Notes: a model not told the origin generated them from the letters alone. A stretch of DNA of 14,978 nucleotides from an uncultured archaeon (GCA_964591795.1 CAZQEL010000021.1:1-14978); one strand, 5' to 3'; positions 1,490 through 14,945 are shown, counted from the first letter of the stretch. Numbers and translations are program-made.

Positions 1490-1708
1490 ATTAGTAAATG
1501 AAAGTTAGTAGATAATAAAAAAAAATTGTTGATTTAAATGAAGTAAAAGAATCATTCATAAAAAAATGATAATAAACAAATTTAACCTAATTGATTTTAA
1601 TAATTTTAAAAAAAATAAAAATAAAATTATTAAAAAATAAAAAACAGTTATAGAACATCAAAGATATTATGTTAAAAAAATGAGTAATTTAGGTAAATTA
1701 GTGGATAA

Positions 1709-2350
1709 ATGAATAAAAAAAATATAACTAATTTTATTAAAAAAAATAAAGCCTACAAAAAAGAACTTGTTTTTATTACTATAGATAATAAAAAAATAAT
1801 AGATATTAGTGAAAAAAGAAAAAAAAAGAAAGTTACACCAGATATATTAAAAACAGCAATAATAAGATTACAAAATAAAAATGCAAATTTAAAATTAATA
1901 CATACCCACACAAAAGTATTAACAACATGGATAGGTGCTAAATTTGGAATTATAAAAACAGGTGAAGCAATATCTATTCAAGATGTACTTTTTATGATAG
2001 GTAGTAAACAAGAACAAGGATTGTCTAAATTTTCAATAATTATAAAACCAAACAAAAAAGGGGATTTTAAAGGAAGAATTAAAATTAGTCTTAAAAACAT
2101 AAAAATTAAAAAATATATAAAAGGTTTAATTGATAGTAATTTACATGAAAAGATAATCACATCATTTAATCATTATTATAAAGAAAAAATGATAAGTAAA
2201 AATTATACAAAAGAAAAAGCCATTGGATCATTATCATATAGAATACTTCATGACTTCTGTATAGAAATTTTACACTTTGATATACAATATATTGGAGAAA
2301 ATGGTAATCAATATGATCTTAATAGAATGATGTTTAGTAAAGGAAAATAA
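1709..2350 (+). CDS. hypothetical Lys-rich protein; possible very divergent JAB/MPN (RadC-like) core
   Basis: 213-codon ORF in DNA where stop codons are very frequent by chance. GTGGAT SD-like element just upstream of the ATG. ELVFITIDNKKIID ... LKLIHTHT ... ISIQDVLFM loosely fits E...HxH...SxxD, but the spacer is about 21 aa instead of 7. Confidence 0.5.
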   Translation: MNKKNITNFIKKNKAYKKELVFITIDNKKIIDISEKRKKKKVTPDILKTAIIRLQNKNANLKLIHTHTKVLTTWIGAKFGIIKTGEAISIQDVLFMIGSKQEQGLSKFSIIIKPNKKGDFKGRIKISLKNIKIKKYIKGLIDSNLHEKIITSFNHYYKEKMISKNYTKEKAIGSLSYRILHDFCIEILHFDIQYIGENGNQYDLNRMMFSKGK

Positions 2351-2426
2351 TTATAAGTGAATATTTAATTAATTTTATAAGATTCAAAAGTAATTGAATA
2401 TCCTTATCTTTTTATAAAAAGTTCAT

Positions 2427-3219: not shown

Positions 3220-4996
3220 TTATTCAACAGTTACTGATTTTGCAAGGTTTCTTGGTTTATCAATATTACATCCTTTTAGATCTGAAATATAATATGCTAA
3301 AAGTTGCATAATTATAACGTTTATAAAAGGAGTAAAATCATTATCTATGTCTTTAACATAAATCACATAATCAGATATATTTTTTATATATTCATCATTT
3401 TTAGTTGCAATTGAAATAATTACTCCACCTCTTGCTTTTACTTCATTAATATTTGAAATAACTTTTTCATAGTTATTATTTTTATTCACAATAAAAACAG
3501 AAGGCATATTTTTATCAATTAAAGCAATTGGACCATGTTTCATTTCAGCTGCTGGATATCCTTCAGCATGAATATAAGATATTTCTTTTAATTTTAAAGC
3601 ACCTTTTAGAGCTATAGGATAATTAATACCACGGCCTAGATATAAAAAGTTTTTAGAATCTTTAAAATTAATTGCTATTTTTTGAATATCATTAACAGAC
3701 TCATTAATTGTTTCAACAATTATTGTAGATAAATTTAATAAATTATTAATTATTTTATTAATATCTGTAGGTGAAATTAAATTATTTTTTTGTCCAATAA
3801 ATAATGTTAACATCCACATGGATACTAATTGATTAGTAAAAGCTTTGGTTGAAGCAACTCCAATTTCAGGCCCTGCTCTTGTATATATTCCAGCTTTTGA
3901 TTCTCTAGCTATGGTTGAACCTACTACATTAACAATACCAATTATTTTTCCTTCTTTTTGCTTTGCTTCTCTTAAAGCTGCAAGAGTATCTACAGTTTCT
4001 CCTGATTGAGAAATAACAATTACAAGGGTATTTTCTGAAATTATTGGATCTCTATATCTAAATTCTGAAGCATAGTCAACCTCTGTAGGAATTTTTAGAT
4101 ATTTTTCAAAAATAAACTTTGAAACAAGAGCACAATGCCAAGAGGTTCCACAGGCAACAATAACAATTCGATTTAATTTAGCTAGATATTCTTTAGTTAA
4201 AAAATTAAGTCCACCAAGGACTTTTTTTTTTTATAGATCTATTCTTCCAGCTAATGCATTTTTAACAGAATCTCCTTGCTCATAAATTTCTTTTAACATG
4301 AAATGTTTAAAACCTTGTTTTTCAATTTGTTCTAAAGAAATTGATAATTCTTTAATTTTTTTATCAATTATTTCATTATTAAAGTTTGTAATTGAATAAC
4401 CTTTGTCAGTAACAGTGATTATTTCATCATCTTCAATATAAACAACATTTTTTCCAACACCCAAAACAACTGGAGAACCTTTTCTTGCTACAATAATTTC
4501 TCTTTTATCTTTTGCCATAACTAAAAGTCCAAAGGAACCAACAACTTGACTAATTGCTTTTAAGGTTGCTTGTTTAAGATCATTAGTATAAAATTTAGAA
4601 ATTAATGCTACAAATACTTCTGAATCTGTTTGAGATTTAAACGAATATCCTTCTTTAATTAAATATTTTTTTTAAGATTCATAATTTTCAATAATACCAT
4701 TATGAACAATTGTAATTTTGTTAAAAGAATCAGTATGTGGATGTGAATTAACATCTGATGGTTCTCCGTGTGTAGTCCATCTAGTATGTGCAATTCCAAT
4801 TATTGAGTTAATTGAAAAGTCTAATTTTTTTTTTAAGATTAAGAACCTTTCCTTTGGTTTTAATGGTTAAAATTTTATTATTATATAAAATTGAAACACC
4901 GCAGGAATCATAATCTCTATATTCTAATCTAATGAGTCCATTAATTAAAATTGGTAATACTTTTTGTTGTCCTATATATCTTATAATTCCACACAT
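3220..4996 (-). pseudogene. glmS: glutamine--fructose-6-phosphate aminotransferase (GlmS), disrupted by 1 frameshift and 2 in-frame TAA
   Basis: N-terminus MCGII.YIG...RLEYR.YDS. Middle [21 protein letters not shown]...VHNGIIENY...SQTDSEV. SIS domains VACGTSWH...SQSGETVDT...GVASTKAF...GRG..YPIALKGALKLKEISYIHAEGYPAAEMKHGP. Canonical C-terminus KPRNLAKSVTVE*. Track ORFs 4808..4996, 4231..4518 and 3220..3819 are pieces of this one gene. Lesions: extra A in the A10 run (plus 4825-4834), TAA at 4672-4674, TAA at 4231-4233. Positions 4230..3220 form one uninterrupted 337-codon frame. Confidence 0.9.
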
Positions 4997-5017
4997 AAAT
5001 ATACCTCTTAAATAAGG

Positions 5018-5027
5018 TTTTATAAAG
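5018..5027 (-). promoter_or_regulatory. TATA-like box CTTTATAAAA upstream of glmS
   Basis: Minus-strand CTTTATAAAA ends 21 nt upstream of the glmS ATG. It shares the 9-mer CTTTATAAA with the box upstream of RNase P RNA. AAGAGGT lies 6 nt upstream of the ATG. Confidence 0.3.
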
Positions 5028-5183
5028 ATATTTAAGTGACAAAAGGTTTTAAAACAAAATATTTTAATATAATTTAAAACTAACTTTATCTAAATAAATT
5101 TTAATAATTTTATTAAATTTACTAATAATAAGCAAAGTTTATTTTTTAGAATTATTTTTTACATAAAAAATTAAAATATTTAA

Positions 5184-5795
5184 TTATGCTTTTTCATTTA
5201 TAAAAAATTTAAAGAATATTGCAATAAAATTATGAATACTATGTGCTATTGTTGCAAATATAAGATTTGGATAGAAAACATAAATCATAGCTAATAAAAA
5301 TCCTTCTAGAAAAATTAAAACTAAATCCATTCTTTTTACACTATAGATTATATGAATAAACATAAAAAGTATAGCATTAATAAAAACAACAATTAAAGAA
5401 GAACTAAATATTTCAAATAATTTAGGAATTAAATATCCTCTAAAAATAAATTCTTGTAAGAAACATAGTGGAATAAATATTAAAATATGATATTTTTTAT
5501 CATGCCAATAATGAATATAATGCTCTCTTTTTAGAACATATTTTGAAAGATAAATAATAGCTAAGGAAACAAGAATTGTAAATAGGATATATGGAAATAT
5601 ATGTCCATCAATATTATCAAATCTAATACCAAGATCTGAAAATGTTATTCCTTCTAAAATAACAAAAGCAATAACTATAAGAAAAATAGAAAATAGAACA
5701 TGAAGTCTATATTTAAAAGGTATTATTTTAACATATAAAAGAAAAACAGGTAATACAAAAATTAAAATTACCTGTAAAATTGATATTAACATCAT
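5184..5795 (-). CDS. CPBP-family (CAAX/Abi-type) intramembrane glutamic endopeptidase
   Basis: Polytopic hydrophobic protein carrying the three CPBP motifs in order: LQEFIFRGY (EExxxR, first E is Q here), FMFIH (FxxxH), HSIHN (HxxxN). Confidence 0.8.
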   Translation of the reverse strand: MMLISILQVILIFVLPVFLLYVKIIPFKYRLHVLFSIFLIVIAFVILEGITFSDLGIRFDNIDGHIFPYILFTILVSLAIIYLSKYVLKREHYIHYWHDKKYHILIFIPLCFLQEFIFRGYLIPKLFEIFSSSLIVVFINAILFMFIHIIYSVKRMDLVLIFLEGFLLAMIYVFYPNLIFATIAHSIHNFIAIFFKFFINEKA

Positions 5796-5824
5796 ACTTT
5801 ATCTTTTATATATTAATTATTTAA

Positions 5825-6877
5825 CTAACCACAAGTTGCATCTGTTGCAGAACCTGTAGTACTTTTATTAAACCCAAATCCTGGTGTAGGTGAGTCGCTA
5901 CTTAATGTTTCATTACATGCTCTTGGTTTTGTTGTAAAAGCATCACAAATACTATTAAGTAAACTTTGAGGATCTCTTGCAGAATTAACAGTAGTTCCGT
6001 TAATTACAAATGTAGGCGAACCTTGTATACCGTATTTTTGATTATCAGCATCGTCTATTAAGAACTTAGGATAAGTTCCATTAAGCCATGATGCCTTATC
6101 AGTATATGAACCCATAATATTGTATGTTTCATCAGTTTGAGCAATACAAGTGCTTAAAGAATCTCTTGTAATTCCAGTTGATTTAAGACATCTATCTGTA
6201 TTTCCATCTTCTAAGAAACAATATAAATATTCATTATATTTGTCAGTAAATTCAGATTTAATACATGATTGTAATAATTCTTCTTTAACTTCAACTTCAC
6301 CGTGCATAATGTAGTTTACAAATTTAATTTCAAAATCTATTGAATCACCTAAAAGATCAACAACAGGTAAAATTCCTTTTTCAGCTTGTGTACCATATGG
6401 ACAATAGGACATTATAAATAATTCAACTATTGGTTTATCTGATGGTTCTAATTTTTGAACTTCTGGTGCTTTATTATCAGTTGCATTTACATCATTTATA
6501 TTAATTGGATCTAAACCAGGTACAAACACTATTTCTCCATCTAAAGAGGTATAAATATTTAAATTTTGATCTTGTATTGTAAATGTATGTAAATACATAT
6601 TATTTTCATAAATTGACTTTTTTAAATTAAGTTCAGGAAGATTAAATGCTGTAATTAAAAAATCTTTTGTAATATTACCAACTTGTAATGCATTTTGTGC
6701 ATCTAATTCATCTGTTTGCTCGTTATTTGAGAAAAGAAAAATTGTTGATATTATAAGTAATATTAATAATACTAAGGAAACTATTTTCCAAGAATGATCT
6801 ATAAAACAAAATTTATTTTTTGCTTTATGTATTTTATGTTCATGATTTTTCGAAGATTTTTTCATATTTTCATTCAT
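5825..6877 (-). CDS. membrane-anchored extracytoplasmic thioredoxin-fold protein (DsbA/GILT-like), monothiol CPYG site
   Basis: N-terminal basic segment plus one TM helix (IVSLVLLILLIISTIFLF). Trx-fold core FIMSYCPYGTQAEK ... GIQGSPTFVINGT (cis-Pro loop). Several further Cys. TTGGTGATAAAA-ATG Shine-Dalgarno. TAG stop. Confidence 0.7.
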   Translation of the reverse strand: MNENMKKSSKNHEHKIHKAKNKFCFIDHSWKIVSLVLLILLIISTIFLFSNNEQTDELDAQNALQVGNITKDFLITAFNLPELNLKKSIYENNMYLHTFTIQDQNLNIYTSLDGEIVFVPGLDPININDVNATDNKAPEVQKLEPSDKPIVELFIMSYCPYGTQAEKGILPVVDLLGDSIDFEIKFVNYIMHGEVEVKEELLQSCIKSEFTDKYNEYLYCFLEDGNTDRCLKSTGITRDSLSTCIAQTDETYNIMGSYTDKASWLNGTYPKFLIDDADNQKYGIQGSPTFVINGTTVNSARDPQSLLNSICDAFTTKPRACNETLSSDSPTPGFGFNKSTTGSATDATCG

Positions 6878-6938
6878 TTTTTATCACCAAATATTTTTTA
6901 AAAAAATTAAAAAAATAGTTTTTTTTTAATTACATATT

Positions 6939-6956
6939 TATATATATATATATATA
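6939..6956. repeat. (TA)9 dinucleotide microsatellite in the intergenic/promoter region
   Basis: Read directly: tatatatatatatatata between the stop of the repeat-protein gene (6976) and the start of the Trx-fold gene (6877). Confidence 0.8.
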
Positions 6957-6975
6957 GAAATATTTAAAAAGAAAA

Positions 6976-9369
6976 TTATAAACTTTTTCTAACTTTTGAC
7001 ATAGAAAAACCACAATCTAAAAGTTCTGATTCAGAATAACCAGCAAGTTTAAGTTCCTCTAAATTATAACCAACAGATCTAAGTTCTTTTGCAGAAAAGT
7101 TTAAATTTTTAAGTTCTTTTGCACTAAAGTGTATTACTTTCATAAGTCTTATACCAATTCCAAGATCAAAAACTTCTTTTGCAGAATAACCAGCATAATG
7201 AAGTTGTCTTGCACTATATCCTACATCATAAAGATCTTTTGCTGAAAAATTACCATCTCTCATAAATGATGCATCAAACCCAGCAATCTTTAATTGTCTT
7301 GCAGAATAGAATGTATGTAAGTCTTTTGGAACATATCCAGCTTGAGCCATTTCTTTTGCAGTGTATCCTGCATTATAGAATTCAGATATGGGTACCTCTA
7401 ATTTATTAAGTTCTTTTGCTTTATAACCTGCAAATCTAATGCTTGAAACATCAAATCCAGCATCATAAAGTTCTTTAGCTGTATATCCAACCACATGGTA
7501 TTGTTTAGCAGTATATCCTATGCTTAAAAGTTCTCTTGCACTAAATCCACCTTTTCTTAAATCAATTAAAGAGAATCCTTCTAAATGAAGTTCAAGAGAA
7601 GTAAAACCAGCAAGTCTTAAATCAACTAAAGAATATCCATTTGCTAAAAAGTCTTTTATAGTACAACCAAGCATATGAACTTCTCTTAAAGAATAACCAC
7701 CAACAAGTAAATCATTACAAGTAACTCCTGCGTTTTTAAGTTGAATTGCTTCATAACCAGCTTCTTTTAAATCTTTAATTGAGTATCCTAAATTTATTAG
7801 TTCAGGAATTGTATATTTAAGATATTTAAGTTCATCTAAATTAAGTTTATCTTTTGAAACTTTAACTTCTTCAACTGGTGATAGGTGAATAAGATCTGAT
7901 AAATCATAACCTGCTTTTTTTAAATCTTCAATAGAAACTCCACTTTCAGCTAACCATTTAGCAGGAATTTCTTCTTTTTTAAATTTAGTTAAAGAAATTT
8001 CTTTTATAAGTTCTTTTAATGAAAAACCAACATCTAAAAGTTCTTTTATGGTAAATCCTTCTTTTAAAATTTCATTTAATGTATAAACCGATCTTACTTC
8101 TTCTAAAGTATAACCTTTTTTTATAAGTTCTTTTAATGTAAATATTTTAACAAGATCTTTAATTGAAAAACCACAATCTAAAATTTCTTTAAGTTTATAA
8201 TTAGCTGATATTAAATCTTGTAAAGAATAACCTGCATGTTTTAAATTCTTAGCAGAGTATGCGTATTCTTTTAATTTTTTTGCAGTAAATTTAGCATTTT
8301 TTAAATCTTTAGCATCAAATTCAGCAAACAATATTGTATGTTGATCAAATCTAACTTTTTTAAGATCTATTGGTTTGTAACCTATGTTTTTAAGTTCTTT
8401 TGTACTTACACCTGCAAGTTTTAGTTCCTTTAAAGAAAAACCAGTATTCTTTAAATCTTTTGCAGAAAAATGAAGATAATAAAGATCTTTAGCTGAAAAA
8501 TTAAGTTCTTTTAAAATTTTAATTGAGAATTTATTTTGTTTTAAAACAACAGCATCAACACCATATGAAAAAAGGTCTTTTGCAGTCATAGTTTTTAAAG
8601 TTTTTTTATTAATAATTATTTTTTTAACTTTTTCTTTTTTAGGAGTTTTTACTTTTTTAATAGTTTTTGTTTTAGCTACTTTTACTTTTTTAACAGCTTT
8701 TGTTTTAGTTACTTTTACTTTTTTAATTTTAATTCCAATTTCTAAATCAGTAAAACCAGCTTTTCTAAGATCATTAATACTAAATTTAGCTTTTTTAAGT
8801 TCTTGTATTGTATATGTTCCTTGATAAAGTTCTTTTGCTGATAAATTAATTGTTTTAAGTTGAGTTGCTGTAAATTTAGCTCTTTTTAAATCCTTAATAA
8901 CAAATCCAACTTCTAAGAGTTGTCTTGCACTAAATTTTGATTTTTTAAGTTCTCTTGTAGTATAACCAACTGCTTTTAAATCTTTTAAATTAATACCAAT
9001 TTCTTTTAATTCTTTTATAGAATAACCAGATACTTGTAAATCTTTTACAGAATAACCCACAGAATATAACTCTTTAGCAGTAAAATCTAAATTTTTAAGA
9101 TTAACTCCACTAAATCCTACTTCTTTAAGTTTCTTTACTGTAAACCCTGCTTTGTTTAATGTTTTTGCTTTAAAGCCAAGTCCTTTTAAAACTGTATAAT
9201 TTGCTTTTATTTCTTTTAATTTTTTTGCAAAATCAATTCTATTAATATTAAATTTTGAGAAAATAGTAACATCTACAGGAGATATAATATATCTTGAAGG
9301 AGAGTTAATTTGTTTTAATAATAAAGAATCTAGTTCTTTTTTAGTTAATTTTTTAATATTTATTGTCAT
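6976..9369 (-). CDS. 797-aa decapeptide tandem-repeat protein (x-G-[FY]-[ST]-x-x-[ED]-L-[KR]-x) with a Lys-rich central linker; function unknown
   Basis: One uninterrupted 797-codon ORF. AGGTGGTGCTTATAT-ATG Shine-Dalgarno. Residues ~62-212 form 15 consecutive 10-aa units with no indels (LKGLGFKAKT LNKAGFTVKK LKEVGFSGVN LKNLDFTAKE ...). The same unit continues through residues ~255-797 with a few 9-aa units. No N-terminal signal peptide or TM helix is evident. Confidence 0.85.
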   Translation of the reverse strand: MTINIKKLTKKELDSLLLKQINSPSRYIISPVDVTIFSKFNINRIDFAKKLKEIKANYTVLKGLGFKAKTLNKAGFTVKKLKEVGFSGVNLKNLDFTAKELYSVGYSVKDLQVSGYSIKELKEIGINLKDLKAVGYTTRELKKSKFSARQLLEVGFVIKDLKRAKFTATQLKTINLSAKELYQGTYTIQELKKAKFSINDLRKAGFTDLEIGIKIKKVKVTKTKAVKKVKVAKTKTIKKVKTPKKEKVKKIIINKKTLKTMTAKDLFSYGVDAVVLKQNKFSIKILKELNFSAKDLYYLHFSAKDLKNTGFSLKELKLAGVSTKELKNIGYKPIDLKKVRFDQHTILFAEFDAKDLKNAKFTAKKLKEYAYSAKNLKHAGYSLQDLISANYKLKEILDCGFSIKDLVKIFTLKELIKKGYTLEEVRSVYTLNEILKEGFTIKELLDVGFSLKELIKEISLTKFKKEEIPAKWLAESGVSIEDLKKAGYDLSDLIHLSPVEEVKVSKDKLNLDELKYLKYTIPELINLGYSIKDLKEAGYEAIQLKNAGVTCNDLLVGGYSLREVHMLGCTIKDFLANGYSLVDLRLAGFTSLELHLEGFSLIDLRKGGFSARELLSIGYTAKQYHVVGYTAKELYDAGFDVSSIRFAGYKAKELNKLEVPISEFYNAGYTAKEMAQAGYVPKDLHTFYSARQLKIAGFDASFMRDGNFSAKDLYDVGYSARQLHYAGYSAKEVFDLGIGIRLMKVIHFSAKELKNLNFSAKELRSVGYNLEELKLAGYSESELLDCGFSMSKVRKSL
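8646..8730 (-). repeat. ~33-nt (11-codon) tandem repeat, about 2.5 copies, encoding KKVKV[TA]KTK[AT][VI] inside the repeat protein
   Basis: Plus strand: tttttacttttttaatagtttttgttttagctac / ttttacttttttaacagcttttgttttagttac / ttttacttttttaatttt. Protein: KVKVTKTKAVK KVKVAKTKTIK KVKTPKKEKVKK. Confidence 0.6.
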
Positions 9370-9632
9370 ATATAAGCACCACCTAAAATATATAATTATA
9401 TTTAGTTAAATAATTATAGTTGAGTTAAGTTTAAATATATTGTTTTTAGTTATGTATACTTAAATTCATTTAAAATCATTTTTTTTATCTAAAAAACAAA
9501 AATATAGAGCCAATAATAATAATTATTACAATCCATATAAATAATTAAATTTTTATTTAATCTTTTAAAAAAACCTAAAATTCACATATAACTCAATAAT
9601 AAATGTTAAAGATATAAAAATATAGTTAATAA

Positions 9633-10604
9633 TTATCGTTTGATTTTATTATTTATAATACTATTTAAAAATGATTGAGTTTTAATTGTTGTAAGATCTC
9701 CTTCTTCACCAAAACTTCCATTTAAATTTCCATGATTTCTTTTAGGTATAATATAATATTCAGCATAATGATCAGAATTTATTAACTTTAAATAAAAATC
9801 CAAAGCCTCAATTTTACCAATTCTTAAGATACTATTTTCAGCACTAAAAAGAATTATTGGTGGAATATTTGTATTTTCATTAATATGATTAATTGCAGAT
9901 GCTTCTTTTAAAAAAGAATCATTTTCACTAAAAGTAAACATTAGATATTTACTTACAATTTGACTATCCACATCAAACTCTCTTGATTTTAATAAATCAT
10001 AACCTATTCCTTCTAAAAGAATAGAGCCTTTAATTACACTTAAATCCATATTATTTTTTTTTAAATAACTTTCATCAGTTGAAATTAATGATATTATTTG
10101 AGCTCCAGCAGAGTGCCCACCTAAAAAAATTAAATCTCTATCTCCAGAATATATATTTATATTATCGTAAACCCAAGCTATAGCTTTTGAAACATCTTGA
10201 ACATATACAGGAAATTTATATTCAGGAAAAACTCTGTAGTTTATATTTACAAAAACATAATTTTGATCTGTAAAATATATACCTTTTAATAAATAATCTC
10301 GATAGTTATTTTTGTTTCCAAAAAAATCAGTCCAAGCTCCACCATGTACAAAAATAATTACTGGCATTTTTTTATCAGGTTTATCTTTAGGAACATAAAT
10401 ATTTAATGAAGTATAATTAATATTATAGTTTACATCTTTTGGATTATCCACATATGGAATATCTTGATAAATTTTAAAATTTGCTTTCTTTTCTAAATTA
10501 TAATAATAAACAGTAGTATATATAATTGAAAATATTATAAATAAAAAAAGAATAGATAAAAAAACAAATAAATATTTGTATTTTATATAAATATTTTTTA
10601 TCAT
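9633..10604 (-). CDS. membrane-anchored alpha/beta hydrolase (esterase/lipase-like, HGG type)
   Basis: N-terminal TM helix (LFVFLSILFLFIIFSIIY). Oxyanion motif IIFVHGGAW. Nucleophile elbow GGHSAGAQ (GxSxG). C-terminal NHGN as candidate catalytic His. TGTGATTATTA-ATG Shine-Dalgarno 14 nt after the upstream stop. Confidence 0.8.
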   Translation of the reverse strand: MIKNIYIKYKYLFVFLSILFLFIIFSIIYTTVYYYNLEKKANFKIYQDIPYVDNPKDVNYNINYTSLNIYVPKDKPDKKMPVIIFVHGGAWTDFFGNKNNYRDYLLKGIYFTDQNYVFVNINYRVFPEYKFPVYVQDVSKAIAWVYDNINIYSGDRDLIFLGGHSAGAQIISLISTDESYLKKNNMDLSVIKGSILLEGIGYDLLKSREFDVDSQIVSKYLMFTFSENDSFLKEASAINHINENTNIPPIILFSAENSILRIGKIEALDFYLKLINSDHYAEYYIIPKRNHGNLNGSFGEEGDLTTIKTQSFLNSIINNKIKR

Positions 10605-10618
10605 TAATAATCACATAT

Positions 10619-11170
10619 TTAAATAAATTTGCTTGATATTATAGCTAAATAACCACCTACAAAAGCAGTAATTAACTGTAAAATACCCATAGCTGTTAAG
10701 AAAATTATAGGAAAATTAAAAAAATAAACTAAAATACAAGTATAACCAAATAATAACCCTGCCTTAATTAAAGAAGACACAACTGGAGTTATCCATAGAT
10801 TCATATTTTTTCTAAATTTTAAAAATTTAAAACTTAAAACATAGGTAAGGTTTGAAATCCATATCATTGGAATAAAATAAAGTAAAAAGTGAGTGTTAGT
10901 TCCAAATATTAACCCAGCTGCTAAAACTCCTAAAGATGGTAATAATATAATAGGCAATATATATTTTAGTTTAAAATAAATTGCAGATCTAATTAAAAAG
11001 AAATTAACTAAAATTCCAATAATCCATTGAGGATGAGCAATTATAAAAGGCAAAATAAAAACAGCTACACAATAAATAGCAAATTCAAATACTTCTAGAT
11101 TATAGTATTTAGAAATATTTCTTAAATTATAATAATTTTTAGAGCTATAAGTAAAATTATTTTTATTCAT
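10619..11170 (-). CDS. hypothetical polytopic membrane protein (~5-6 TM helices)
   Basis: 183-codon ORF, strongly hydrophobic and segmented. ATATTTAAAT TATA-like box about 21-30 nt upstream and no SD (leaderless geometry). Tightly followed by the hydrolase gene. Confidence 0.6.
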   Translation of the reverse strand: MNKNNFTYSSKNYYNLRNISKYYNLEVFEFAIYCVAVFILPFIIAHPQWIIGILVNFFLIRSAIYFKLKYILPIILLPSLGVLAAGLIFGTNTHFLLYFIPMIWISNLTYVLSFKFLKFRKNMNLWITPVVSSLIKAGLLFGYTCILVYFFNFPIIFLTAMGILQLITAFVGGYLAIISSKFI

Positions 11171-11419
11171 ACAAATAGTATATATGTTACATTTAAATAT
11201 ATTACTTATAAATTAAATTAAAAAAAAAACAAAAACAAATATTAATTCATAAAAATAATAAAATTTCTGCTAATTTGGTTACTTCATTCCTTTCATAAAT
11301 ATGTTCTTTTTCACCTAAATTTATTAATTACTTCTTTTATTAAATTTTTAATAATTGTTTTTTTTATCTTTTTTTTAATTTTAAGATATTTAATAATATA
11401 AAAATGTTTAAATTTATTT

Positions 11420-11434
11420 AAAAAAAGAAAAATA
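11420..11434 (-). terminator. oligo-U tract directly after the tRNA 3' end
   Basis: The minus strand reads UAUUUUUCUUUUUUU immediately after the discriminator base. This is an archaeal-style oligo-T terminator. Confidence 0.35.
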
Positions 11435-11552
11435 TCCCCCCTCCCAGATTTGAACTGGGGATCTTCCGGTTACCGCCATTAAAATAAATTTAACTTTGGT
11501 ATTACCCAAAATGTCTACAGCCAGACGCACTAGACCACTATGCTAAGGGGGG
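11435..11552 (-). tRNA. tRNA-Tyr (anticodon GUA), archaeal type, intron-containing, no encoded CCA
   Basis: Folded by hand: acceptor CCCCCCU/AGGGGGG; D arm GCA-UAGUGGUCUAG-UGC; anticodon stem UCUGG/CCGGA; loop C-U-G-U-A-G-[intron]-A; variable AGAUC; T arm CCCAG-UUCAAAU-CUGGG; discriminator A. C1-G72 and the short variable loop are the archaeal/eukaryal tRNA-Tyr type. Confidence 0.9.
11471..11514 (-). other. 44-nt tRNA intron at the canonical 37/38 position
   Basis: 118 nt of gene minus a 74-nt mature cloverleaf. The inserted ACAUUUUGGGUAAUACCAAAGUUAAAUUUAUUUUAAUGGCGGUA sits between G37 and A38. Exact bulge-helix-bulge boundaries were not verified. Confidence 0.7.
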
Positions 11553-11597
11553 TGTTTATAACTATATAATATATTAGCAAAACATATTTAAATAAAA

Positions 11598-12038
11598 CTA
11601 TTTTAGAATAATTTTTTTTAATTGTTTCTTTCTTGTTGGAAATAAGATTTTATAATAACCAACCGCATTTTCTGCCATAATATTATTTTCTAACATATAT
11701 TTATTGAACGTATATGATTTTAAAGAATCTAAAACTTCTTTTAAATTGCCTTTATATTCTACATTTAAACTTTTTTCAACAATTTTTGAAAAATTAGATA
11801 AATTAATTTCTTTTATAAAAAATGATGGATCTTTTGAAAATAATTTAGAAATTTCAAGATTAAATGATGTTAAATTAATTATTTTCCCTAAGTATTTATT
11901 TATTTGAAAGTTACTTGTAACTTCAATTGAAATTAAAAACTCTAAAATATCTAAATCTTTAACACCGGGAATTATTTTCATTTTTTTAACAGATTTAAAA
12001 TCGTTTGTATTAGCAATAAAATTAATTGTTTGATTCAT
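11598..12038 (-). CDS. hypothetical protein, paralogue B of a tandem pair
   Basis: 146-codon ORF. TGTGATTAATT-ATG Shine-Dalgarno overlapping the upstream TGA stop. Shares INFI..NDFK..KK...DLDI...ISI...INKY.G ... LFS...SF.KE.N.S.F with 12045..12431. Confidence 0.6.
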   Translation of the reverse strand: MNQTINFIANTNDFKSVKKMKIIPGVKDLDILEFLISIEVTSNFQINKYLGKIINLTSFNLEISKLFSKDPSFFIKEINLSNFSKIVEKSLNVEYKGNLKEVLDSLKSYTFNKYMLENNIMAENAVGYYKILFPTRKKQLKKIILK

Positions 12039-12044
12039 AATTAA

Positions 12045-12431
12045 TCACATTTTATGAAAAGATGGAAATGCATTTTTTTTTGAAAAATATTTTTCTAAAA
12101 TATATACTTTACAGGCATGAAATAAAGCTTTTTTCTTAGCTTTTTTATATTCAGTTAAAAGTTCATTTACTTGTCTTTTAAATTTACTGGAATTAAGTTC
12201 CTTTAAAAAAGAAGTTTCATTCATTGAAAATAAAGCTAAGTTTGATTTTTCTAATTTTTTTACATCAAGTATCTTTTCTAAAAGAACGCCTACATATTTA
12301 TTAATTGGAGTTTGAATAGATATGTAATATTTAAAAATATCCAAATCATTTGTTTTTAATTTAAACGGTAATTTTTTATCTTCTTTAAAATCGTTTACAC
12401 TTGAAATAAACTGTATATATTCATCTGCCAT
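12045..12431 (-). CDS. hypothetical protein, paralogue A of a tandem pair
   Basis: 128-codon ORF. TGTGATTTAAT-ATG Shine-Dalgarno. Collinear similarity to 11598..12038 over most of its length. Confidence 0.6.
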   Translation of the reverse strand: MADEYIQFISSVNDFKEDKKLPFKLKTNDLDIFKYYISIQTPINKYVGVLLEKILDVKKLEKSNLALFSMNETSFLKELNSSKFKRQVNELLTEYKKAKKKALFHACKVYILEKYFSKKNAFPSFHKM

Positions 12432-12485
12432 ATTAAATCACATATTTTTTATTCTAAATATAATAATAGATAAAGAATATAAAGA

Positions 12486-13067
12486 CTATTGTTTAAAACA
12501 CTTTGAACATCTTGCTTGGTATTTTTCAGTACCACCTAGAATAACAGTTTCTTTTGAATCTCCAAGTCTATAGGTTCTAGTTGCAGTTTCACCACAATTA
12601 TTACAAACTGCATCAAGATGTATTACAAAATCTGAAAGAGCCATTAAAGTTCCAATATGATCCTTTTTGTCCTTAAAAGGAAAAGGTTTACCTTGAAAAG
12701 TTTGATTTAACCCGCAAGAGAAAACATTAACCCTAAAAGTTGTAATTTCTCTAATAATATTTAATATTTTAGAATCAAAAAATTGTACTTCATCAATAAA
12801 AACATTAACTAAAGGTACCTCTTTTTGGTTACTTGAAGCTATGTATTCTTTAACTTTTAATAAAATTAGTTCTGAATTACTACAAGGGATTGCATCTTCT
12901 TTAATACCATTATGATTTAATATTGATTTGTTTGAATATCTGTTATCCATTTCAGGTTTAAATATTAATGAATATCTTTTAGCTATTTCTTCTCTTGATT
13001 TAAGTCTTAAAAGCTCTGTTGTTTTTCCAGAAAACATAGGTCCTGTAATTGTTGTTATTTTTCCCAT
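12486..13067 (-). CDS. tdk: thymidine kinase (TK1 type)
   Basis: P-loop ITGPMFSGKTTELL; VFIDEVQFF; C-terminal zinc site CNNCGE ... ARCSKC. Length 193 aa. GAGTGATAAAA-ATG Shine-Dalgarno. Confidence 0.9.
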   Translation of the reverse strand: MGKITTITGPMFSGKTTELLRLKSREEIAKRYSLIFKPEMDNRYSNKSILNHNGIKEDAIPCSNSELILLKVKEYIASSNQKEVPLVNVFIDEVQFFDSKILNIIREITTFRVNVFSCGLNQTFQGKPFPFKDKKDHIGTLMALSDFVIHLDAVCNNCGETATRTYRLGDSKETVILGGTEKYQARCSKCFKQ

Positions 13068-13092
13068 TTTTTATCACTCATTTTTTTTATTA

Positions 13093-13906
13093 CTAATACA
13101 TATGACTTCTTGTGCTAATTAATAAATCTGTAAAATAAACATCAATCTTACCATCTACTCTTTTAACAAAAATATTTGAAAGTTTTTCAAAATCTCCAAT
13201 ACCTCTTTTGTTACCTACAGAAACTGGTAAGAAGTTAAGTTCTGTTAATTTATGAATTTTATTCTGAATTGATTTAAGTTCTTTTGTTGTTATTTTTTTA
13301 TCTAAATAAGCTTCACCCATTGTTTTTAATCCTGTAAAGTCATAAGCAATAATACTTTTCCTACTTAAGTTATCAGTAAACGCTAAATGAGGCTTTATTG
13401 TATTAATTCCATATTTTTGAAAAGCTTGATTTGCAATAAATTCATTATTTGCTAAAAAACTACTCATTGGAGCTTCAACCATTTTTAAAAAATAATCTTT
13501 AGATATATTTTCTTTTTTTAAAAATAAATTCATTTTCAGTAAATATTTATTATTATAACTACTTTTCTTAAAATGAGATAAATTTAAATCAAGTTTATCT
13601 GTACTTAAAGAATACTTTTTAATATTATTACTATTAATATTAAATACGTTTTTAGAAATAAAATCTATAACTTCAGGATATTGTTTAAATATATTTTTTC
13701 CAATTAAGCTTAGATGTAAAGTTTTAGATTTTTTAGAACCTAAATCAATTGAGTAATATAAAGTTTTGCCATTTAATTTTGTAACTTTAAATTGATTCTT
13801 ATTTTTTATAAGTCTTTTTCTTTTTAAAGTAATATTAGAATCTATTTTTCCTAAATTAACATCTAATTTAGGTTTTTTTAATTTTTTTAAAATTTAAACA
13901 AATCAT
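13093..13906 (-). CDS. hypothetical protein, ~270 aa if one A is removed from an A7 run; as written, the start is frameshifted from the body
   Basis: The track ORF (13093..13533) has no SD at its ATG, and its frame stays open 120 more codons to 13893 without any ATG/GTG/TTG. AGGTG-TAA-ATG lies at 13914-13904 in the frame offset by 1 (MICLNFKKIKKT*). The two frames overlap only across two A7 runs (plus T-runs 13873-13879 and 13882-13888). Confidence 0.55.
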
Positions 13907-13927
13907 TTACACCTGATTAATTATAAA

Positions 13928-14212
13928 TATAGTGGTTTACTATAAGCCGCTTTATGTAGTTAATAGCAATCAGTCTTAGCGGAGATTAAAATTCTCCTTG
14001 CACCAAATGTATTCCTGCATGATTTCAGCCTTTCTCTTTTCCCTTCAGTTCTACACATCACAAGTTTAAAATAGAAAAGAGCCGTCTTGTTTCTGTTCAG
14101 GAATAAAGCCCCATTAAGAACTTTTATTTTTTTAATTAAATTATTGGTGAGCGGACTTTCCTCATCTTTTTAGAATCACTCTAAAAAAATGTGCTAAACA
14201 TAAACCACTATA
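13928..14212 (-). ncRNA. rnpB: RNase P RNA
   Basis: ORF-free G+C-richer island. The minus strand contains, in the correct order: GAGGAAAGUCCGC (CR-I / P4 5' strand, plus 14151-14163), AACAGAAAC, AAGGGAAAAGAGAAAGG, AGACUGAUUG, and ACAUAAAGCGGCUUAUAG (CR-V / P4 3' strand, plus 13940-13957). AAG-U-CCGC pairs with GCGGCUU, leaving the conserved bulged U. The termini form a perfect 12-bp P1 (UAUAGUGGUUUA / UAAACCACUAUA). Confidence 0.85.
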
Positions 14213-14234
14213 TATAATATTAAGATAAAAATAG

Positions 14235-14243
14235 TTTATAAAG
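14235..14243 (-). promoter_or_regulatory. TATA-like box CTTTATAAA upstream of RNase P RNA
   Basis: Minus-strand CTTTATAAAC lies about 22-31 nt upstream of the first P1 nucleotide, directly after the stop of the 14244..14945 gene. Confidence 0.35.
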
Positions 14244-14945
14244 CTATTTGTAAGCTTTATAAATTTCATAAGTACTAACTAATATTGAACTTAACCATAA
14301 ATAAACAAAAAGCACTATAAACAACCCTATAAAATAATTTGATAAAATTGGAAATATTAAAGACAATAAACTTAATATAAGACTAAACACTATAATTAGA
14401 ATTAATAAATATCCAATCAAAAAGATTTGAGTTATCCAAAAATTTTTTGTAAATATAATTTTTAAATTTTTTTTAAATTCAAAAAAGTCTTCAAATTTGT
14501 TTGATTTTAAATATTTAATAAAACCTAAATTTTTAATGTATTCTAAAATTAAAAAACCAATTATCATTATTAAAATAGTTATTAATAATAAAAAAATACC
14601 AAAATTCAAAACAAAAATATTTTCAGTATTAATTAATGCTTTTAAAAAATAAACAGGGACTAAAAAGATCAATAAAAAAACACCTTGAATAAATAAAAAT
14701 ATAAATGAACCAATTAAATAAATTAAACCTAACTGAAGTATCTTAACAATTGTTTTCTTATCATAATGCTTTAATGAAGTTAATAATTGTAAACCAATAA
14801 AACCAGCAGTAAAAAATATAGCTAAAATTAATGATGGTAAAATAAATACATCTCCAATTAAAGTTAATAATCCAATTAAAATTATTATTAATAAAAATTT
14901 AAAATTTATATAAGGTATTTTAATTATATTTCTAAAGTCTATCAT
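14244..14945 (-). CDS. hypothetical polytopic membrane protein
   Basis: 233-codon ORF with about 6 long hydrophobic segments. GTGAATAATT-ATG SD-like element. No recognisable catalytic motif. Confidence 0.6.
   Translation of the reverse strand: MIDFRNIIKIPYINFKFLLIIILIGLLTLIGDVFILPSLILAIFFTAGFIGLQLLTSLKHYDKKTIVKILQLGLIYLIGSFIFLFIQGVFLLIFLVPVYFLKALINTENIFVLNFGIFLLLITILIMIIGFLILEYIKNLGFIKYLKSNKFEDFFEFKKNLKIIFTKNFWITQIFLIGYLLILIIVFSLILSLLSLIFPILSNYFIGLFIVLFVYLWLSSILVSTYEIYKAYK

Follow-up and report, generated by a model that had tools for sequence, protein, structure and literature searches.

A broken glmS gene in an AT-rich DPANN archaeon, probably inactivated recently and before two strains diverged

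The window, that is, the whole stretch of DNA that was analysed, comprises 14,978 nt, is an NCBI contig in full and has a GC content of about 22%. Its archaeal-type genes encode a DUF2666 protein, a DUF4013 protein, an HVO_A0114-like ArsR protein, a thymidine kinase and a decapeptide-repeat protein. When the translation is repaired, a single glmS gene is found on the minus strand, running from 4996 to 3220. Pfam assigns to the repaired translation SIS (2.4e-60, in two stretches), GATase_6 (2.2e-15) and GATase_7 (1.7e-12), and the alignment with the E. coli GlmS structures extends over the full length. As expected of a GlmS, the N-terminal class-II (Ntn) glutaminase domain has a Met-Cys start (MCGI...) and the isomerase module consists of two SIS domains, in which KLKE, MKHGP and AKSVTVE align with E. 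coli 4AMV. The catalytic Cys1 is retained, as are the equivalents of Glu488, His504 and Lys603, the roles of which in GlmS have been described (PMC9272926). A GlmS also requires one unbroken frame of about 600 codons for both domains. Here that frame is interrupted by a +1 frameshift, two TAA codons and a 51-nt deletion, and the feature is therefore a pseudogene of the GlmS family. Its parts are the following.

3220..4996, minus strand: glmS pseudogene, glutamine--fructose-6-phosphate aminotransferase, with a GATase-II domain and two SIS domains
4826..4996, minus strand: N-terminal 57 codons in the start frame, ending ...GKVLNLKKK and including codons 6 and 28
4981-4979, minus strand: codon 6, AGA, G6R (MCGIIRY; Gly or Ala in other homologues)
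4915-4913, minus strand: codon 28, GAT, G28D (RLEYRDYDS; Gly in 119 of 119 homologues)
4825..4834, minus strand: A10 run with the +1 frameshift, reading T10 on the plus strand
4774..4776, minus strand: ACT, Ala to Thr at residue 74 in the RWATHG loop (A74T), private to the window's strain
4672..4674, minus strand: first in-frame TAA (T plus A8; run 4666-4673), from TTA (Leu), private to the window's strain
4447..4455, minus strand: junction of the 51-nt in-frame deletion, within GGA AAA AAT, between AAA-RAT microrepeats
4222..4233, minus strand: second in-frame TAA (4231-4233) with an A11 run, in the interdomain linker; A10 in the sister strain
3220..4230, minus strand: isomerase (2xSIS) half, 337 open codons, carrying E464K and A335V
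3993-3991, minus strand: A335V, inside SQSGETADT, strain-specific
3606-3604, minus strand: E464K in the SIS half, at a Glu invariant in 119 homologues

The gene begins with the ATG at 4996-4994. Its middle part has 197 codons and in the repaired frame reads ...NGIIENYES, TAA, then KKYLIKEG...NALAGRIDL and the second TAA. The original prediction had described one glmS gene broken three times, and the N-terminal piece, the A10 frameshift at 4825-4834 and the in-frame TAA codons at 4672-4674 and 4231-4233 are in the sequence as it gave them; the count was too low, however, because the 51-nt deletion brings the disabling lesions to four or more. Neither an Rfam nor a tRNA scan of the window gave a match, so that no glmS ribozyme or other RNA element is present. 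A sigma-70 promoter scan of the window returned 22 sites against 18 expected, which is uninformative for archaeal AT-rich DNA.

The glmS product has its best database matches, at 75-77% identity, in intact proteins of 608-610 residues, one of them named Candidatus Iainarchaeum sp. Candidatus Iainarchaeum belongs to the phylum Iainarchaeota of the DPANN archaea. Homologues were aligned in two sets, first 15 and then 119 intact sequences. Deletion of one A from the A10 run restores the glmS frame, and at this position the relatives read AAA GAA AAA. The first TAA aligns with Leu or Ile in all homologues, and in E. coli with a Leu of IENHEPLREEL, as the original prediction had stated; the DNA of the relatives reads AGT TTA AAA AAA TTT. 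The proposal that both stop codons arose from TTA holds for the first, for which the relatives' DNA and the TTA of the sister strain agree. For the second, TTA is no more than a candidate ancestral codon, as this stop lies in a variable part of the linker (K, S, V or F in relatives; the linker is one codon shorter in the window). On the plus strand, a 6-bp GC-containing hairpin directly precedes the T11 of this linker (4207-4232); it resembles a terminator, is antisense to glmS and is made of the VLGGL codons and the linker A run, probably fortuitously.

The in-frame gap had been noticed as well, with a size of about 15 residues. It takes out 17 (EDEYFIASDTSAIIEYT or equivalent), including the conserved xFxASDxxAxxxxT strand and three columns that are 100% conserved in the 119 homologues. 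The AAA-RAT repeats that flank the junction in the relatives are the signature of a microhomology deletion. The two glycine replacements reported earlier are confirmed by the comparison with homologues, and the orthologue alignment shows that the deletion and the loss of Gly28 are abnormal against the 119 intact sequences. Residue 74 is A or S in all 15 aligned homologues.

Conserved columns of the N-domain are broken by the window in 5 of 64 cases, whereas the maximum among the other sequences is 3 and the median 0; in the C-domain the window breaks 1 of 111, which is in the normal range. Identity to the relatives is 0.68-0.72 in the N-domain (0.68-0.76 among intact orthologues) and 0.80-0.82 in the C-domain (0.78-0.82), so that by per-domain identity neither half of glmS shows a clear excess of divergence. 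When unique substitutions at conserved sites were tested for an excess, the counts were weak, and it is the kind of substitution that stands out (G28D and E464K, against I/V-type changes elsewhere). Because the divergence falls within the range of intact orthologues, the inactivation must be recent, and the substitution-level evidence is thin.

Comparison of the window proteins by tblastn showed that the gene order around glmS matches that of relatives (L006, L086 and L087) on both sides, at 59-83% identity. The common order is esterase, decapeptide-repeat protein, a 350-aa ORF, CAAX protease, glmS, ArsR and glutaredoxin (Grx), then SpoU methylase and DHH. By position, the broken gene is the orthologue of the intact 609-aa glmS of the Candidatus Iainarchaeum relatives, and since the flanking order is conserved it is not a spare paralogue on the contig. 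It resembles the intact Iainarchaeum GlmS (P0001-P0008, 608-610 aa; L006, L086, L087 and L090) in domain order and flanking genes, and differs from it in the frameshift, the two stops, the 17-aa deletion and the substitutions G6R, G28D, A74T, E464K and A335V. The upstream leaders of the two are unrelated. The untouched promoter-like box and SD, which had been cited against full decay, consequently have no weight, as the relatives' different leader lacks an SD and the sister strain has GAGA in place of GAGG.

In the relatives, a 380-aa malic-enzyme gene lies between the glutaredoxin and SpoU genes (L090 2266-3408, corresponding to window 1490-2426). At this site the window and the sister strain have a 213-aa ORF (1709-2350) that is unrelated and runs on the opposite strand, and no remnant of the malic-enzyme gene was detectable in the window.

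In a scan of genome contigs the best match among those listed was 75% identical; a scan of metagenome contigs with a lineage-specific 101-aa stretch returned only the 58% relatives and no sister strain; and a protein search with the middle piece of glmS returned distant partial proteins only. One protein of 512 residues (P0012), considered as an N-terminally truncated relative, was rejected since its sequence stops where the contig ends. The database clusters of the 62-aa and 95-aa ORF fragments, which include the JGI variants P0242 and P0244, led to the sister strain. Its contigs come from two metagenomes, JGI 3300039186 and 3300039187 (L091 and L092; L088 and L089 for the downstream part), and it is called the JGI strain below.

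The A10 frameshift, the 17-aa deletion and the linker TAA are common to the window and the JGI strain. The 62-aa product of the latter also ends in KKKIRLFN before its stop, and its 95-aa product contains GVGKNVVY, that is, the deletion junction. In the JGI gene, the N-terminal 57 codons are in frame with the SIS half, and the 197 codons of the middle part are out of frame with both. The two strains differ at the following positions of the gene.

4981: GGA (Gly6) in the JGI strain, AGA (Arg) in the window
Codon 28 (4915/4914): TGT (Cys) in the JGI strain, GAT (Asp) in the window
4776: GCT (Ala, RWATHG) in the JGI strain, ACT (Thr) in the window
4673: TTA (Leu) in the JGI strain, TAA (stop) in the window
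4359: GAA (Glu) in the JGI strain, AAA (Lys), E213K, in the window
Linker run, one A at 4232: A10 in the JGI strain, A11 in the window
3992: GCA (Ala, SGETADT) in the JGI strain, GTA (Val) in the window

With the relatives as outgroup, six of these differences arose in the window's strain, each of them by a change to A or T. Seven of the strain differences in glmS are non-synonymous or nonsense and one is synonymous, whereas the neighbouring CAAX protease gene has 3 non-synonymous and 6 synonymous; against all other genes pooled (42:26), the ratio of 7:1 is not significant (P = 0.25).

The window's own type is represented by two further assemblies. A short-read megahit k141 contig (ENA ERZ27316756, L001) covers window positions 3650-14616 with one mismatch, at 3658 and outside the lesions, and a Logan contig of SRR8862237 (L005) covers 3659-4710 with 100% identity. 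The three assemblies probably derive from one read set. Lesions that are partly common and partly private across separately assembled samples cannot be explained by sequencing error. The conclusion of the original prediction, one glmS gene in real decay rather than an error, is thus upheld by the lesions outside homopolymers, by the agreement of the assemblies and, above all, by the pattern of lesions in the second strain. Those common to both strains place the inactivation before the strain split, and the private ones indicate that decay continues independently.

Divergence between the strains is a mosaic along the contig, ranging from 0.025% to about 4%, and its density shifts at the JGI contig breaks, 3991-4118. 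Contig breaks recur: L001 and L005 end at 3650 and 3659, around the synonymous variant 3658, and those from JGI at 3991 and 4118, next to variants 3992 and 4117. Such coincident breaks in the assemblies of different samples imply that haplotypes co-exist within each sample. The segment 5646-6832 is hypervariable. It includes the N-terminal part of the CAAX protease and the greater part of the 350-aa ORF, which is secreted and thioredoxin-like, and it accounts for about 57 of the 87 strain differences; 30 changes are non-synonymous and 18 synonymous, and an indel of 9 bp lies near 6711. In the 8 kb that follow (6833-14890) the strains differ at only 2 sites. The pattern points to recombination or to diversifying selection acting on a surface protein.

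In all likelihood the locus is a formerly functional, orthologous glmS of a DPANN archaeon near Candidatus Iainarchaeum, which was pseudogenized recently, before the strains diverged, and is now drifting. The decay may have begun in the common ancestor of both strains with the conversion of a Lys-rich stretch to an A9 run, probably by G-to-A changes, after which the run would have gained one A by replication slippage and thereby the +1 frameshift. Still in the common ancestor, the 51-nt segment would have been lost between the short AAA-RAT repeats, a TAA would have arisen at the 5' edge of the linker A run, and Gly28 would have been lost. Later, the window's strain would have acquired the TTA to TAA change at the second T/A-run edge together with G6R, A74T, E213K and A335V, all to A or T, and the other strain would have lost one A from the linker run.

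Slippage in a run is known from other organisms to give indels, and transient misalignment ("dislocation") to turn a flanking base into the base of the run. The simplest account of the clustering of lesions at T/poly-A junctions may thus be a mutational hot spot, the long A runs being prone to slippage indels and to misalignment substitutions of the base beside them. The repaired gene offers 311 possible nonsense substitutions, only 2 of which extend a homopolymer to at least 8, and both are those seen; the chance of this is about 4e-5 when the linker codon is assumed to have been TTA. Among the background differences between the strains, 6 of 30 touch a homopolymer of at least 7, against 1.25 expected (P about 0.002). 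Within glmS, the change of GAA to AAA at 4359, which merges the A's into an A7, is of the same run-edge class. The long runs are unevenly placed: the N-half and linker hold A9, A7 and A10, the SIS half one A7 and two A6. Base substitutions at homopolymer edges may be a dominant, measurable mutation class in DPANN genomes.

Three polymorphisms outside glmS also lie at runs. At the intergenic position 1608 the strains have T|A8 and TT|A7, the same kind of edge as at the glmS TAA; at 11611 they have A|T8 and T9, giving Ile/Asn near the end of a DUF2666-like gene; and at 192-193 the difference is A6 against A8 (CGA AAA and AAA AAA). Reassignment of TAA to sense was considered and rejected, because the 16 neighbouring ORFs end in 9 TAA, 5 TAG and 2 TGA. 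No internal TAA was found in the other genes of the window.

In very AT-rich, reduced genomes, indels in A runs have been described as the first steps of gene erosion (PMC3017870). The insect endosymbionts studied there, Buchnera and Blochmannia, are like the window in their very low GC content and the long A runs in coding sequence, in a one-base indel in a run of 9-11 A as an early inactivating event, and in a frameshift kept between related strains while erosion differs by lineage (PMC3017870). The present organism differs from them in being a DPANN archaeon and not a bacterial endosymbiont, and its gene has in addition two run-edge nonsense substitutions, a 51-nt deletion and the loss of an invariant Gly. 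The mutation classes are those expected in a very AT-rich genome, and the case is one of ordinary, known gene erosion with no new mechanism.

The 337-codon SIS half had been regarded as untouched and as a sign against full decay. This is correct for its frame and stops only, as it carries E464K and the strain-specific A335V; as a sign against decay it is weak, since the half lacks its own start codon and, in the sister strain, does not share the frame of the middle part. The GlmD/NagB-II proteins of archaea are stand-alone SIS-domain glucosamine-6-phosphate deaminases, homologous to the isomerase domain of GlmS, and their two-SIS module corresponds to the surviving frame. An alternative to the decay of the whole gene is, accordingly, that the isomerase (2xSIS) half functions alone in the manner of these deaminases and only the glutaminase half decays. 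Several observations fit it. The four disabling lesions are confined to the N-half and linker, the first 43% of the gene, for which the chance, given four lesions, is (766/1777)^4 or about 0.035. The strains differ at 7 sites in the 766 nt of the N-half and at 2 in the 1011 nt of the SIS half, and the non-synonymous and synonymous changes number 6 and 0 in the former and, with the 3658 variant counted, 1 and 2 in the latter. The SIS ORF is open in both strains and keeps the equivalents of the catalytic Glu488, His504 and Lys603 (for their roles see PMC9272926).

A stand-alone enzyme would, however, need an ORF with its own start codon over both SIS domains, and neither the window nor the sister strain has one. 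From the linker TAA to 3819 there is no in-frame ATG, GTG or TTG, and a start at 3819 would leave 199 residues, from which the first SIS subdomain with the phosphate loop would be missing. The Met of HFMLKEIYEQ, which would be the natural start of a GlmD-like protein, sits upstream of the linker TAA, so that the piece differs from GlmD/NagB-II in lacking a start codon and in having the equivalent N-terminal helix before the stop; it also comes from a bifunctional GlmS by decay and not from a dedicated gene. In the sister strain, too, the SIS frame has no start after the nearest upstream stop. E464K affects a residue invariant in 119 homologues, and A335V, within SQSGETADT, likewise falls on a conserved site. 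The distribution of lesions tracks the A runs, the long ones being in the N-half and linker, and divergence between the strains is a mosaic (0.025% to 4%), the density of which changes at the contig breaks 3991-4118. These objections are stronger than the hints of residual constraint on the SIS half, and the SIS half would be open because the inactivation is recent and because few long A runs occur there. That the glutaminase half was discarded while the two-SIS half stayed under selection by way of non-canonical initiation is therefore improbable. If true, it would reveal, in a symbiotic archaeon, a bifunctional amidotransferase midway in its conversion to a stand-alone sugar-phosphate enzyme of the GlmD/NagB-II kind.

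It is more doubtful still that full-length GlmS continues to be made by recoding, that is, by transcriptional or ribosomal slippage on the A runs combined with read-through of UAA, the runs serving as expression switches. The A10 frameshift is kept in both strains, the linker run is A10 or A11 depending on the strain, and rescue by transcriptional slippage of otherwise intact genes with a single A-run frameshift is documented in Blochmannia and Buchnera (PMC3017870). The A10 run with its one surplus A is indeed a single indel in a run of about 9 or more A/T, but the rescued genes have that indel only and are intact otherwise (PMC3017870), whereas the present gene has two TAA codons, the 17-aa deletion and G28D. 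With these lesions beyond the indel, transcriptional slippage cannot restore the product; at best it could mend the A10 frameshift. A change in the number of A's removes neither TAA, because the T and the first two A's stay in frame, and among the genuine stop codons of the contig TAA is the most frequent. A full-length product, if made, would be crippled by the deletion and by G28D, and in the sister strain a change of frame and a TAA separate the middle part from the SIS half.

The least credible explanation is that glmS is intact and only seems broken through homopolymer errors in sequencing or assembly. In its favour, the frameshift and both stops touch A runs 8 to 11 long, one read set may underlie all assemblies of the window's type, and the strain differences elsewhere are run-enriched too, which a technical bias could mimic. 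Against it, the short-read megahit k141 contig and the Logan contig agree with the window, two more samples, separately assembled, carry the A10 frameshift, the linker TAA and the deletion, neither the deletion nor the substitutions at invariant residues are homopolymer errors, and errors would not pile up in one gene while other genes with A8-A9 runs stay open.

With glmS disrupted by recent pseudogenization, the organism cannot make glucosamine-6-phosphate with this gene, and amino sugars or a replacement activity presumably come from elsewhere. If this is the only glmS copy, the ability to make glucosamine-6-phosphate de novo, from which the path to UDP-GlcNAc begins, has just disappeared from this Iainarchaeum-like lineage while its closest sequenced relatives keep it, and the event would be a dated step of metabolic reduction and of growing dependence. 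With the two strains, the decay of a pseudogene can be followed in real time and at small scale, which is rarely possible; they also show that in this genome, with its GC content of about 22%, the edges of A runs, and not run lengths alone, are mutational hot spots. For annotation, the public 62-aa and 95-aa "GlmS" fragments should be flagged as pieces of one pseudogene, and pathway reconstruction for this MAG should not count glmS as present.

Some features of the remainder of the contig may be recorded. The segment 13534-14243 comprises 710 nt without an ORF of at least 90 aa and without an Rfam or tRNA match on a contig that is tightly packed elsewhere; the sister strain has no gene call in this segment either. 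At 11598-12431 two tandem DUF2666-like paralogues of 128 and 146 aa lie in one frame, parted only by TGA and two codons, and the ENA gene caller merged them into a 277-aa product, probably by using a TGA-sense code for the low-GC contig. The gene at 6976-9369 encodes a protein of 797 residues that consists almost entirely of decapeptide repeats (Pfam PF25296, E = 1e-166, 12 stretches) and has 72% identity in the relatives.
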